From IMG/VR virus record IMGVR_UViG_2802429241_000003: DNA of 9,751 nucleotides, one strand, 5' to 3'. The translations under genes and the position numbers were made by a program. Below the pieces are notes generated by a model. That model worked only from the letters and a program-made list of their open reading frames with translations. It was not told where the DNA came from and made no database searches. The DNA is from a virus. Its lineage: Duplodnaviria; Heunggongvirae; Uroviricota; Caudoviricetes. Positions 2,664 through 8,124 of the stretch are shown one piece after another. How positions within the stretch are numbered: position 1 is the first letter of the stretch; every line of letters starts with the position of its first letter.

Positions 2664-3320
2664 ATGAAAAGCAACGACGAGAACATCAAGAAAGAAATAG
2701 GTCTGCGCATTCAGACTCTACGGAAACAATCCGGCATGACTGCCGGAGATCTCCAGCAAGTCACTGGAATAGGCTTAAGCACCTTGCAGAACTATGAGGC
2801 CGGATTAAGACAACCATCTATACCTGCCATCAAGAAAATCGCGCACGCCCTGAAAGCATCAGCGCCTTATATCGCGTGCTTAACAGATAACCCGTTCCCA
2901 CCCCAGAATACTAACGCTCCTGTTATTCCTGGGCTTGTAGCTATAAAAAATGACATAGCATCGCACGCCGGAGAAAAGCCAGTGCTGGCGATAGAACAGG
3001 AGATTCTACGAAGCAAGAACATCAACCCATCGTCTCTGTCAGTTCTCCAGAGCAACGATGAGTTAATGTCACCAACAATATCCCCAGGCTCCCAAGTCCT
3101 GATTAATACAGACGATACAGAGATTCATGAGGGGATCTATGCCCTTGAAGACAGAAATGGCCTGGTTGTTTTGAGGCACTGTAGAGTCATACCGGGTGAC
3201 AATGCTGTTATGCTGTCAACCGAAAGGGATGCTGAAATGAACACTAAGCATCTGAATAACGAGGAATTTAAGCGTTATAAAGTTCTTGGCCGCGTAGTTA
3301 GTGTTGTCAACTGGTTATGA
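2664..3320 (+). CDS. CI-like phage repressor: N-terminal HTH_XRE domain plus C-terminal LexA/S24-peptidase-like domain
   Basis: 218-aa ORF. HTH segment LRKQSGMTAGDLQQVTGIGLSTLQNYEAG; C-terminal segment with M-S-P-T-I-S-P-G-S-QVLIN spacing typical of the S24 fold. Divergent from the cro-like gene across palindromic operators. Confidence 0.8.
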   Translation: MKSNDENIKKEIGLRIQTLRKQSGMTAGDLQQVTGIGLSTLQNYEAGLRQPSIPAIKKIAHALKASAPYIACLTDNPFPPQNTNAPVIPGLVAIKNDIASHAGEKPVLAIEQEILRSKNINPSSLSVLQSNDELMSPTISPGSQVLINTDDTEIHEGIYALEDRNGLVVLRHCRVIPGDNAVMLSTERDAEMNTKHLNNEEFKRYKVLGRVVSVVNWL

Positions 3321-5133: not shown

Positions 5134-5256
5134 CTACTTGCTGCTAATGTTTATCGTCACATTCAGAGCGTTATCAGTAATCTTCCAACCCTCCCCATGT
5201 GGCGTAAACAAAGCTCCAGTAACAACGATAAAAATACACATACAGTATTTTTTCAT
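5134..5256 (-). CDS. 40-aa small hydrophobic protein, candidate type I toxin (MKKYCMCIFIVVTGALFTPHGEGWKITDNALNVTINISSK)
   Basis: Internal ATG of the 60-aa track ORF with AAGGG SD about 8 nt upstream; hydrophobic N-terminal stretch; strong terminator immediately after the stop; candidate -10 TATAAT (minus strand, 5411-5416) about 150 nt upstream. Confidence 0.35.
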   Translation of the reverse strand: MKKYCMCIFIVVTGALFTPHGEGWKITDNALNVTINISSK

Positions 5257-5320: not shown

Positions 5321-5340
5321 GCTGTTTGTGCCTGCGTGGT
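5321..5340. repeat. Copy A of a 20-bp direct repeat (gctgtttgtgcctgcgtggt); lies in the predicted 5' leader of the small-ORF mRNA, where it is read as its complement
   Basis: 19 of 20 identity with 5570-5589; flanking sequence shows a diverged duplication of about 80 bp (ctgaaag and gcgaatc shared). Confidence 0.6.
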
Positions 5341-5569
5341 ACGGCAAGTGGATAATCCTTTCCTGAAAGTCGGTGCCCGGTTGCGAATCGGCGAAAAGGC
5401 CCCAAGCCATATTATACGTCATCCCCTTCATAATGAAGGAATAAAAAACGCTTTTATTACATAGAATTACACGTAAATAAGTTAAAAACCTTCATTTTGC
5501 ATGAGCTAATGAGCTAAATTTTTTATATGAATAGTGGACTATTCACCTAAATTGGGTAAGAATGTAGTT

Positions 5570-5672
5570 GCTGTTTGTGCTTGCGTGGTTGTATTAGTAC
5601 AACGACGTTATGCTGAAAGGACCGCGAATCCGATCGGCACGAAAGAACCGTCCTCAATAGGGCGGTTTTTTT
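5570..5672 (+). ncRNA. Candidate antisense small RNA (about 100 nt) beginning with repeat copy B and ending at an intrinsic terminator
   Basis: Copy B gctgtttgtgcttgcgtggt at 5570-5589; internal hairpin gttgta-ttag-tacaac; terminator ccgtcct-caat-agggcgg plus T7 at 5648-5672. A weak candidate promoter TGGACT-17-AAGAAT at 5535-5563 would start transcription near 5570. The 5' end is not established. Confidence 0.3.
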
Positions 5673-5676
5673 GTTT

Positions 5677-6222
5677 CTACCACCGCCCTATTGATTCAAG
5701 TATTAATGAAGGTGAATCATTTGAATTATTCGATTTTGCACCGTTATCGACCCAATCTCTGTATGCTTCATCACAACAGTACCTTACAGCAGTTGGAATA
5801 ACAGGGATGCCGCCCCCAAATGAGAACCCCATTGAGCTTATGCTAATTCTGTCGGATGGCCTATTTCTCAATGCTTCAAATCCCTTGCTGTTGAAGTAAC
5901 TCAGCATCAGAGGCAAAAGGTTATCCTCGTCCTGACTGATTGTTCCAGGGAAAAAGTAGTAACCATAGCGATTAAATTCGGGGATCAGTTTTTCTACCAA
6001 CAACATGAAATTCATTGGGCTAATATTAAGGGCTGTGCAAGCACCAAAAAGGGCATCAACTGTTAATACAGACTGCCCGTTCTCTATCTTTGTCCATGCG
6101 TTTGGTGTTTTTCCGGCAGCTTGAGCCAGCACTCCTTGATGCACACCTCTTTCTAGCCTAAGCTCTTTTATGATCATTAGGTGGATTGTTGAAAAACATG
6201 AGTTTTTTGACGGATCAGACAT
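5677..6222 (-). CDS. HTH_XRE-domain protein with a C-terminal domain of unknown function (181 aa)
   Basis: ATG at 6222 with GGAG 7 nt upstream; N-terminal IIKELRLERGVHQGVLAQAAGKTPNAWTKIENGQS is a Cro/C1-type HTH; stop lies inside an 11-bp inverted repeat (5655-5665 and 5683-5693). Confidence 0.6.
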   Translation of the reverse strand: MSDPSKNSCFSTIHLMIIKELRLERGVHQGVLAQAAGKTPNAWTKIENGQSVLTVDALFGACTALNISPMNFMLLVEKLIPEFNRYGYYFFPGTISQDEDNLLPLMLSYFNSKGFEALRNRPSDRISISSMGFSFGGGIPVIPTAVRYCCDEAYRDWVDNGAKSNNSNDSPSLILESIGRW

Positions 6223-6406
6223 TTTTTAGCTCCATATAAAACTCTATCTTTGTTCTCAATTTTAACAAACTGCCCATCTTGGGAATGTGTTGTTCCTTGT
6301 GAGAACTATACATTCCCATTTCTGGTATATCAAGAAAATTAAAAGCTCGGCATTCAAACCCACGCTATGTGGTTGTCTCTGTTAAAATCCCGCCGTATTG
6401 ACATGA

Positions 6407-6505
6407 ATGCGCCATTGGTGGACACTTTCCGAGCCGTAGCAAAATCTACGGTCGGGATTGGCGTCCCGATTGCACAATGGCGCATACCGCGTTAGCGGTT
6501 TTTTT
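6407..6505 (+). ncRNA. Structured element: 11-bp long-range stem enclosing two adjacent 6-bp hairpins, followed at once by an intrinsic terminator; candidate leader/attenuator or small RNA
   Basis: Outer stem 6407-6417 aatgcgccattg pairs with 6475-6485 caatggcgcat; hairpins ccgtag-caaaat-ctacgg and tcggga-ttggcg-tcccga; terminator accgc-gtta-gcggt plus T7 (6486-6505). TTGACA at 6397-6402 lies just upstream. Confidence 0.3.
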
Positions 6506-6607
6506 ATGCGTAAAGCACTGCTACACCCAAATTATGGTGGGGCGTGCGGGGGCGGAGAAATCCGCGCCGGGTTTGTCATTGTGCCGGTTACGCCAACCCT
6601 GTACGTC

Positions 6608-6641
6608 TCACCACCATATTGATTGGCGTCATTGGTGGTGA
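6608..6641. promoter_or_regulatory. Inverted repeat TCACCACCA-N16-TGGTGGTGA in the promoter region of the antirepressor-like operon
   Basis: 9-bp perfect arms at 6608-6616 and 6633-6641; a third ATTGGTGG half-site at 6414-6421; lies 27-60 bp upstream of the ATG at 6668. Confidence 0.4.
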
Positions 6642-6667
6642 TAGTTCCTTTAATCGGAGATATCACA

Positions 6668-6859
6668 ATGACAAACCTACCCCATGACTATTACGTCAAC
6701 CTCGTAAAGATCCTTCTCAAGAAAGCCTCATACGCCGATAAATTCCGCCTGGCTGAAATCATAGAGCGCGAAGCTATGCGCATCGCCAGCAACGATAACG
6801 CTGTTTCTGACGCAAAAATCTCCCTCGTAACCAAAGTAGTTATGGGAGGTGCAAAATGA
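6668..6859 (+). CDS. Hypothetical small protein (63 aa), translationally coupled to the downstream antirepressor-like gene
   Basis: ATG at 6668 with GGAGA SD 8 nt upstream; stop TGA overlaps the ATG of the next gene (ATGA at 6856-6859). Confidence 0.45.
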   Translation: MTNLPHDYYVNLVKILLKKASYADKFRLAEIIEREAMRIASNDNAVSDAKISLVTKVVMGGAK

Positions 6860-8124
6860 AAACGCTTCCGACCGTTAACACCCTACAGCCTATCCTGCAT
6901 AACCAAATCCCTGTCATTACTACCGAGTTACTGGCACAGCTTTACGGCGTATCTCCTGTACGCATTCGACAAAATCATCATGAGAATAAGGAACGCTTCA
7001 TTGAAGGTAAGCACTACTTCAAAATTGAAGGTAACGAACTTCGAGAGTTAAAGCACAAAGTGACTCAAGATAATGATGTGAAGAACAAAAACTCTTTAAG
7101 AGATTCAGTTAATGACGCCCCCTCTAAAAGAGAGAGCGTCGAGCACAGAGTAGTTTTAAACTACTCTGTTAACCACAAGGTAACTAAAAGTCACTCTGTG
7201 AAAATCGCCCGTAACGTTCGCTCCCTCATTCTCTGGACAGAACGCGGGGCTGCACGTCACGCTAAAATGCTCGAAACTAACCAAGCGTGGGATGTGTTCG
7301 AACGGCTGGAAGACTGCTACTTCAACCAGAACGCGCAAACGGCCGCGACCGTTACCGTCTCGCCAAACAATGCTCGTGAGGTTGTCGATACGCTCAACGC
7401 CAAACCGATGTTTTACATTAAGGTGTGCAACAACGAGCCACTCACAACCTCAGCCGATGTTGCCCAGGCATTCAGCACCACAAACAATTCCATCGTTATG
7501 GCCATCGATGCGCTACGCATTCCTCGCACGGCTGCGGCACGTCATTTCTTTAAAGAGCAACGACCGCTGGAAGGAAGCGACCGCGAAATAACAATCTATC
7601 GCATGACAAAAGACGGATTTACCTTGCTCATGGAAAGTATCGACGGTCCAGGCGTGAAGGATATCAAGCTGGCCTACATTGAAGCCTTTAACGCTATCAG
7701 CAGCGTGTTAAAAACACAGTACGAGCGCGATCTGGCTAAACGACTGTACCAGGAAAAAACGATTATCCGCGCGGCAACAGAGCATAATCGGCTATTAACG
7801 GAACCGAACTACAGGAAGGAACTAATCAAGGAGTTTGACAAGGCAACAGGGAAAACCAAAGCGACGCTAAATCTGCCAGCAATGACTCAGGAAAATGTGA
7901 TATCAGCCTTACTTCTTGATCTGCTCAGAAACGCCAGAGCACTTATCAGCTTTGACGAAAACCTGAATCCTCAGCTCAAGCTACTACCACCGACAGGCAA
8001 AGTAGTCGACCAAGCTGATCACAACAGCATACTCAGCGTTCTGGATGCAAACCTGCCAGCCAGGACACTACAGGATCTGATAAAAACATGTGCTGATAAG
8101 CTGGCACAGAAAAGCAGACCATAA
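6856..8124 (+). CDS. Antirepressor-like phage regulatory protein: N-terminal ORF6N-like domain, central Rha-like domain, unassigned C-terminal region
   Basis: 422 aa. N-terminal ITTELLAQLYGVSPVRIRQNHHENKERF...ILWTERGAARHAKMLETNQAWDVFERLEDCYF resembles ORF6N; central RMTKDGFTLLMESIDGPGVKDIKLAYIEAFNAI resembles the Rha family (TRDGF..L.M.F.G.....K..YI.AFN). Strong GGGAGG SD 6 nt upstream. Confidence 0.75.
   Translation: MKTLPTVNTLQPILHNQIPVITTELLAQLYGVSPVRIRQNHHENKERFIEGKHYFKIEGNELRELKHKVTQDNDVKNKNSLRDSVNDAPSKRESVEHRVVLNYSVNHKVTKSHSVKIARNVRSLILWTERGAARHAKMLETNQAWDVFERLEDCYFNQNAQTAATVTVSPNNAREVVDTLNAKPMFYIKVCNNEPLTTSADVAQAFSTTNNSIVMAIDALRIPRTAAARHFFKEQRPLEGSDREITIYRMTKDGFTLLMESIDGPGVKDIKLAYIEAFNAISSVLKTQYERDLAKRLYQEKTIIRAATEHNRLLTEPNYRKELIKEFDKATGKTKATLNLPAMTQENVISALLLDLLRNARALISFDENLNPQLKLLPPTGKVVDQADHNSILSVLDANLPARTLQDLIKTCADKLAQKSRP

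Follow-up and report, generated by a model that had tools for sequence, protein, structure and literature searches.

Among the described systems closest to the locus analyzed here, the R-M controller (C) proteins, such as C.Esp1396I, C.BclI, and C.AhdI, are single-domain proteins of ~75 to 100 aa, which control an adjacent restriction gene and have tandem palindromic operators at their own promoters. PezA, an epsilon/zeta-type antitoxin of 158 aa, comprises an autorepressor HTH followed by a helical domain, and the immI region of phage P22 has a small repressor gene, mnt, that is divergent from the antirepressor operon. Bifunctional HTH-Acr proteins have also been documented, and the C-terminal extension of Aca2 serves dimerization (PMC9410906). 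Single-gene cargo such as old and tin occupies the gpA-gpQ interval of P2, which is a cos-proximal defense hotspot (PMC9122126). Lastly, in timP/TimR, the two genes are divergent, an 18-nt pairing lies in the 5'UTR >60 nt upstream of the RBS, and the antitoxin ends in an intrinsic terminator (PMC7667032).

The locus that we describe lies in a window of 9,751 nt (the whole stretch of DNA that was analyzed) and encodes a 181-aa protein of the XRE family, which is similar in size and layout to PezA and whose putative own-promoter operator architecture fits that of AcrIIA1-type Acr-Aca proteins. Our best explanation, which we regard, taken as a whole, as fairly probable, is that the gene forms a self-contained, mobile, autorepressing accessory XRE cassette (a "moron") with a conflict-related C-terminal domain, which was inserted with the terminator of a TimR-like RNA on one side and the promoter region of a P1-type ant (immI) operon on the other.

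A precise 671-bp cassette and its alleles

The window is 96-98% identical to ~48.5-kb nonmobilizable plasmids of E. coli, E. albertii, and Salmonella, among them the one in E. coli ATCC 25922, and is ~90% identical to three Yersinia pestis myophages, for which a literature search returned nothing. In a complete relative, genes for the head, the contractile tail, and lysis are found alongside those for RepA, ParA, and a HigB/RelE-type toxin-antitoxin (TA) system; the host element is therefore a phage-plasmid, and the window is part of a ~48.5-kb myovirus-type phage-plasmid of the E. coli ATCC 25922 type. The plasmid pSLy3 was rejected as a member of the same type, being an SSU5-type element. 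Besides the XRE gene, the window contains (i) a ParA gene; (ii) a cI-type repressor gene (2664-3320; 218 aa), the product of which has an HTH and a sub-threshold S24 match (18.4 bits; cut-off 23.3); and (iii) an ORF6N-Rha antirepressor gene (ant; 6856-8124, plus strand). At 18137-19830 and 20493-21329 of a relative from E. albertii (L029), an acetyltransferase gene and an LPS N-acetylglucosaminyltransferase gene adjoin the tail-fiber genes, and a macro-domain protein is encoded within the tail-fiber cluster; these extra genes are possibly O-antigen-modifying or conversion cargo.

Comparison with empty plasmids, by blastn and junction alignment, delimited an accessory cassette of 671 bp (5685..6355, minus strand), which comprises the gene body, the 5'UTR, the promoter, and the operators. 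In three empty plasmids (L026, L027, and L028), homology to the window ends at 5684 and restarts at 6356, with ~3 bp between; the gene is a precise 671-bp indel, i.e., an optional cargo cassette. Of the 59 related plasmids matching 5450-6350, 15 contain the gene, and the other 44 match only ~5530-5684. In the regions examined, plasmids without the cassette keep ParA, the small-RNA locus, the ant operon, and a RelE/ParE-type TA system. Within E. coli, the cassette was found in 20 of 5426 complete genomes, every copy residing on a plasmid of ~48.5-kb size. The best full-length allele in these genomes is ≤91% identical to the window cassette, and the ATCC 25922-type alleles are ~94% identical across the 73-74% of the cassette that aligns. 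The protein of the native ATCC 25922 allele is WP_000137931.1.

The gene region is 87-91% identical between alleles, as against 97-98% for the whole window, and dS reaches 0.57. Because this divergence far exceeds that of the flanks, it implies that the cassette alleles are probably old and were swapped by recombination, rather than having recently diverged in place. Four plasmids (L001, L018, L033, and L034) have alleles that are 9-13% divergent, in plasmids otherwise 97-98% identical, and both the junction sequences and the C-terminal tails of these alleles differ. Closely related alleles are also present on unrelated small MobC/NikA plasmids (L030 and L031), as well as in a phage contig, beside HNH/terminase genes (L039).

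At the left edge of the cassette, a perfect 13-bp inverted repeat (5654-5666 / 5682-5694) encloses a 15-nt loop that holds the stop codon of the XRE gene (5677-5679). Its left arm is flank sequence, namely the 3' half of the small-RNA terminator hairpin, and its right arm comprises the first bases of the insert. The initial annotation had rightly placed the stop within an inverted repeat overlapping the small-RNA terminator, but at 11 bp it had made this repeat 2 bp too short. While the repeat might form a hairpin at the 3' end of the XRE mRNA, it is allele-specific and is not kept in the other gene-carrying plasmids. The sequence directly past the terminator varies by allele class, and the last ~20 residues of the protein vary accordingly, with the ORF of some alleles reading through the terminator (…ETKKPSF); this variation accounts for the disordered protein tail and shows the 13-bp repeat to be allele-specific.

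The XRE-family protein and its tandem operators

The ORF (5677..6222, minus strand) starts with an ATG that is preceded by the sequence GGAG (6230..6233, minus strand), which we read as a Shine-Dalgarno element 7 nt before the start codon; its last two codons and stop are flank/junction sequence. Residues 18-69 (6016..6171, minus strand) form a DNA-binding domain that exceeds the Pfam gathering thresholds for HTH_3 (29.5 bits; cut-off 23) and HTH_31 (30.5 bits; cut-off 27), and the five-helix lambda-repressor-like fold is present, as in members of the XRE (Cro-C1) family. Pfam matched nothing outside residues 18-69, including no Peptidase_S24 domain of the kind found in LexA/lambda cI-type cleavable repressors, and the matches in PADLOC-DB v2 (HTH_VI, RmrA, and control proteins) were limited to the HTH (residues 16-78). 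We identified 32 full-length homologs (130-215 aa; E values of 1e-102 to 1e-36), and dN/dS between alleles (Nei-Gojobori) is 0.02-0.36 for codons 1-62 and 0.15-0.33 for codons 63-165, with the C-terminal half evolving faster than the HTH. Given these homologs and the low dN/dS in both halves, the ORF is a real gene under purifying selection. Across the homolog family, the recognition-helix region (P40-N48) shows no or almost no variation, and residues 6-60 are identical across the cassette alleles compared (those of the window and of the four plasmids with divergent alleles). A GTG ORF of 121 aa (5534-5899, plus strand), which overlaps the small RNA and is antisense to the gene's 3' half, has no support and is almost certainly spurious.

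The upstream region of the gene contains a σ70-like promoter, TTGATA-17-TATAGT (6333..6305, minus strand), with the -35 hexamer at 6333-6328, a 17-nt spacer, and the -10 hexamer at 6310-6305. Since a promoter scan of the window was not enriched over shuffles and so did no better than chance, the support for this promoter is the conserved layout of the operators and the -10 hexamer. An apparent single 16-bp inverted repeat over the promoter was resolved, on homolog comparison, into two 17-bp palindromes of the consensus rGGAAy-N5-rTTCCy, which are 20 bp apart, center to center. Operator 1 (6301..6317; gene strand GGGAATGTATAGTTCTC) is centered on the -10 hexamer, and operator 2 (6281..6297; gene strand AGGAACAACACATTCCC), an exact match to GGAA-N7-TTCC, covers the predicted start site.

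Homologs from different genera share these sites. Across nine 240-bp upstream regions, we counted 10 exact GGAA-N7-TTCC matches within ≤100 bp upstream of seven close homologs, against ~0.03 expected. The motif precedes homologs in Vibrio, Deefgea, Pandoraea, metagenomic phages, and Mob plasmids, often as a tandem pair, with further matches in L030, L031, L036, L038, and L039, and the tandem 20-bp layout recurs in L020, L022, L008, and L031. In most family members, the AT-rich center of the operator doubles as the -10 hexamer. Moreover, a divergent subfamily from Pseudomonas and Limnohabitans (26-39% identity) has the same half-sites with an N8 spacer, which argues that site and protein have co-evolved. 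In an Advenella contig (L006, 7741-7865), a 20-bp unit, TTTTCAGGAACATGCATATC, occurs six times in perfect tandem upstream of the homolog; each unit holds the operator half-site GGAAC, and the array replaces the usual palindrome pair.

Besides the pair at the gene's own promoter, a search of the window and of a complete 49.5-kb relative found no second operator pair; in this relative, single matches with one mismatch number 22, compared with 17.7 expected from the shuffled rate. Within the window, the motif is absent from the ant promoter, the ant leader, and the small-RNA promoter, and at the homolog loci examined, it precedes none of the neighboring genes, defense genes included. A strict tandem-operator pattern matched once in 2.9 million viral contigs, with no family gene nearby and probably by chance; because the pattern is more stringent than the operator pair of the window itself, the search is a weak negative. 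Since the motif covers the gene's own -10 hexamer and start site, recurs before homologs, and occurs nowhere else on the plasmid, the protein appears to repress its own promoter, by what would be negative autoregulation. Together with the contexts of the homologs described below, in which the gene is always a lone unit, this layout agrees with the initial annotation, which had presented the locus as a standalone 181-aa HTH_XRE regulator with its own promoter.

Modeling of the full-length protein with AlphaFold2 and the family alignment gave a pLDDT of 86.5 and a pTM of 0.82. Beyond the HTH, the model has a long helix (residues 69-85), a strand (88-91) paired with one near the N terminus (6-9), and then five short helices up to residue 159. 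Together with the family alignment, it delimits a family-specific C-terminal domain (residues ~70-160; 5743..6015, minus strand), in which L103, G114, P143, T144, Y148, and C149 are invariant, and a nonconserved, disordered tail (residues ~161-181; 5680..5742, minus strand; pLDDT 40-66), which is encoded at the variable insertion junction. The initial annotation had assigned ~110 aa to an extra domain, had proposed structure prediction of residues 70-181, and had allowed for disorder throughout this region; residues ~70-160 fold confidently, so that the domain stands as ~90 conserved residues, and only the last ~20 are disordered. When modeled alone, the C-terminal region reached a pLDDT of 73.9, and this lower confidence suggests that the domain packs onto the HTH rather than forming a separate lobe.

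The excised C-terminal domain matched no Pfam family, its sequence profile matched nothing in the PDB, and a Foldseek search with the protein against viral structures returned HTH matches only. In addition, of 1.84 billion proteins searched with the domain profile, only 33 cluster representatives were retrieved, and the full-length ones all share the N-terminal HTH layout. As far as these searches reach, the domain is rare, resembles no known family or solved fold, and is joined to an HTH in every case.

The RNA loci on either side of the cassette

To the left of the cassette, a small RNA (~5530-5675, plus strand), whose locus all related plasmids conserve, has an intrinsic terminator at its end (5647-5672, plus strand; stem 5647-5654 / 5659-5666, followed by a T run). 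It is divergent from an RNA of the ryfA family (5404-5106, minus strand; Rfam 136 bits, threshold 80), which contains a hydrophobic ORF of 40 codons (ATG 5256, stop at 5134, minus strand; MKKYCMCIFIVVTGALF…). Positions 5570-5589 of the small RNA are identical to 5321-5340 at 19 of 20 positions and are thus complementary over 20 nt, one G·U pair included, to the 5'UTR of the ryfA-family toxin mRNA (5340-5321); the 40-codon ORF starts ~65 nt downstream of this pairing site. By analogy with timP/TimR, the small RNA is identified as the putative TimR-like antitoxin of a plasmid-borne, timPR-like type I TA locus. The long-range duplex energy computed for the small RNA with the ryfA-like RNA did not discriminate the pair from shuffles (-83 kcal/mol vs -76 +/- 6.5 kcal/mol), and the timPR argument therefore rests on the contiguous 20-nt complementarity. 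A weak RNAI match (23 bits, E 0.72) was sub-threshold and was disregarded.

To the right of the cassette, the ant leader contains (i) an isrK match (6433-6505, plus strand) and (ii) a C4 antisense RNA match (6530-6618, plus strand), both above threshold, as well as (iii) a c4-a1b1 match (6420-6472, plus strand) that, at 41.7 bits, is just under the gathering score of 46.7. The C4 loop at 6570-6583 is a perfect complement of 6664-6677. This stretch includes the ATG (6668) of an icd-like, 63-aa ORF (phrog_7886), which in turn overlaps the start of ant at 6856. On these matches, the leader (6420-6859, plus strand) is assigned to P1-type immI control. The palindrome at 6608-6641, which had been offered as a possible DNA target of the XRE protein, was rejected as such, being in the 3' end region of the C4 RNA; it belongs to the C4/immI leader and lacks the operator motif.

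The intergenic region between cI and the early operon (2490-2663) contains repeated palindromes of the ACCAC-N5-GTGGT type, which are probable cI operators. A similar palindrome, CCACGCTATGTGG, is present at 6360-6372, directly at the right edge of the cassette and just upstream of the predicted ant promoter (TTGACA at 6389-6394). As this cI-type site adjoins the predicted promoter, it suggests, by analogy with Op51 of P1, that the ant operon may be under cI control.

Homolog contexts, possible functions, and known systems

Across ~14 independent contexts, we found no conserved partner gene: the homolog gene invariably stands alone with an operator of its own, and its neighbors vary by locus. 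In P2-like elements, the homolog is (i) a lone gene between gpA/Ogr and the portal gene, i.e., in the gpA-gpQ interval, of a Vibrio prophage (L019); (ii) at the end of another prophage, adjoining int (L002/L003); or (iii) on a phage-plasmid with Abi_2 and LuxI/R (L024). The last of these is a 39-kb metagenomic element, which encodes portal, gpD, and Ogr proteins along with RepA_C and a ParA-like ATPase, and in which the LuxI/LuxR pair and Abi_2 share the variable region with the homolog. Elsewhere, the homolog is found in a two-integrase island with ThsB directly downstream and with type I RM and SIR2 genes (L022); it adjoins Hachiman HamB and a PIN_4 protein (L004), GmrSD (L012 and L014), or a Phd/PIN pair (L020); or it has SLATT, PLD nuclease, and HigB genes nearby (L006). 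Such a pattern is typical of conflict-related cargo, as an association that fits defense, anti-defense, and regulator roles alike. At four loci, a gene in the same orientation follows the homolog (encoding ThsB, a PIN_4 protein, a YjaZ-labeled ORF, or an 81-aa ORF), so in some elements, the homolog may just regulate the downstream gene.

According to the mechanism that we consider most likely, a dimer of the XRE protein would bind each 17-bp palindrome, and occupancy of the -10 hexamer and start site would exert negative feedback that keeps the protein at a steady low level in the lysogen. Since no other operator occurs on the element, a function beyond self-repression would likely be carried by the C-terminal domain (residues ~70-160), which probably mediates oligomerization and offers a protein or ligand partner a binding surface. 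We infer that this function most likely lies in conflict between mobile elements, either by excluding incoming phages or plasmids or by neutralizing host defense, because the relatives are single-gene cargo in the defense hotspots of many mobile elements. The more specific proposal, that this is a new type of single-gene, self-regulating conflict module, in which a C-terminal domain of new fold blocks an incoming phage or plasmid or disarms host defense, and in which the operator-bearing cassette moves between phage-plasmids, P2-like prophages, Mob plasmids, and defense islands, is one that we advance tentatively, as possible rather than probable.

A somewhat unlikely alternative is that the protein is an orphan repressor with a C-terminal domain that merely forms a dimer or tetramer, and that it represses promoters of the host chromosome (lysogenic conversion) or of incoming related elements with the same operator (decoy immunity). 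Its fold and operator layout do resemble those of small XRE repressors and R-M controllers; the tandem sites suggest cooperative binding, for which an oligomerization domain suffices; and the C-terminal extension of Aca2 is used in this way (PMC9410906). However, neither the window nor the whole relative offers a second operator pair, and the viral contigs yielded the single match in 2.9 million. A host target shared across Vibrio, Escherichia, Pseudomonas, and Burkholderiales is unlikely, and ~90 conserved residues with invariant P143, T144, Y148, and C149 exceed the needs of a simple dimerization helix.

We regard as distinctly less probable an orphan antitoxin-like or anti-defense protein of the AcrIIA1/PezA design, in which the HTH would autoregulate and the helical C-terminal domain would bind and neutralize a toxin or immune effector encoded elsewhere. 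With the full-length family profile, PezA is the best solved-structure match (2p5t_A; E 7.7e-4; positions 18-115), and the alignment extends past the HTH; this match is mainly HTH-driven, with few identities past the HTH, where it is marginal. The NCBIfam matches to PezA (NF041575; 16.8 bits vs a cut-off of 290) and to HipB-type antitoxins are likewise weak. Bifunctional HTH-Acr proteins set a precedent for this design (PMC9410906), the carriers of the gene (phage-plasmids, Mob plasmids, and prophages) must establish themselves in new hosts, and the faster evolution of the C-terminal half would suit it. The C-terminal domain has no sequence or fold similarity to AcrIIA1 or Aca2 and none to solved Acr structures, and no acr gene lies between the promoter and the XRE gene. 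Further, no PezT/zeta toxin gene adjoins the gene in the window or at the homolog loci examined. An M78/ImmA-type peptidase partner, as in the ImmR/ImmA, CapH/CapP, and DdrO/IrrE pairs, is absent from the window, and an HTH-Peptidase_M78 fusion was seen only in L010, ~1 kb away and on the other strand.

That the protein regulates its neighbors, either as a second, Mnt-like repressor for immunity acting on the divergent ant operon or by controlling the convergent TimR-like RNA, is very improbable. The arrangement invites this reading, as the gene is divergent from the ant leader and convergent with the small RNA, and its promoter is ~60-100 bp from the predicted ant promoter. Yet the 44 relatives without the gene keep both neighbors intact, the operator motif is missing from the ant promoter, the leader, and the small-RNA promoter, homologs reside in elements with neither an ant operon nor timPR, and the ant region already has the cI-type operator-like site at 6360-6372 and C4/isrK RNA control. 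The layout of a small repressor gene divergent from an antirepressor operon is shared with Mnt of P22 immI; unlike Mnt, the XRE protein has no operator at the ant promoter and is dispensable in most relatives, and Mnt is a ribbon-helix-helix protein and hence of a different fold family. Hardly credible is the reading that the gene supplies a factor for replication or maintenance that the plasmid prophage is missing; the initial annotation had suggested such a factor, and the position of the gene near genes for ParA and a small partition protein and near a TA locus could favor it. Yet 44 of 59 related plasmids lack the gene but keep ParA and ant, so that it serves no replication, maintenance, or core immunity function. 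Most relatives are maintained as plasmids without it, and empty plasmids still carry ParA and the RelE/ParE-type TA system. The complete carrier plasmid L029 has RepA annotated several kb away as well as ParA, HigB/RelE-type TA, and timPR-like TA systems elsewhere, and Pfam and NCBIfam revealed no Rep or Par family similarity. Both the Mnt-like and the replication-factor readings were rejected on this pattern of presence and absence.

These comparisons settle, at the level of sequence, that the gene stands outside the replication/immunity core, that the small RNA is to be read as a timPR-like antitoxin, and that 6608-6641 belongs to the C4 control of the antirepressor. If the preferred reading of an autorepressing, conflict-related cassette is true, a promoter, its operators, and a 181-aa ORF within 671 bp would make up a compact conflict cassette with a new domain, and the natural presence of the cassette in E. 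coli ATCC 25922, a widely used reference strain, makes it easy to test. If the C-terminal domain is an oligomerization module only, the protein would be an ordinary orphan autorepressor of modest interest.

Of the known systems, the R-M C proteins, whose structures and sequences are among those that match the HTH most closely, share the tandem palindromic operators at the gene's own promoter. The XRE protein differs from them in its length of 181 aa, with ~90 extra residues, and in having neither an R-M partner nor evidence of an activating site, and its operator sequence differs from the known C-boxes. No R-M genes flank it in the window, and R-M genes are nearby, but not adjacent, in only one of the ~14 homolog contexts. 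The likeness to the old/tin cargo of P2 is one of position: Old and Tin have no homology to the XRE protein, but the Vibrio homolog occupies the same gpA-gpQ interval, alone, and the homolog of the metagenomic P2-like phage-plasmid resides in its variable region, with Abi_2.
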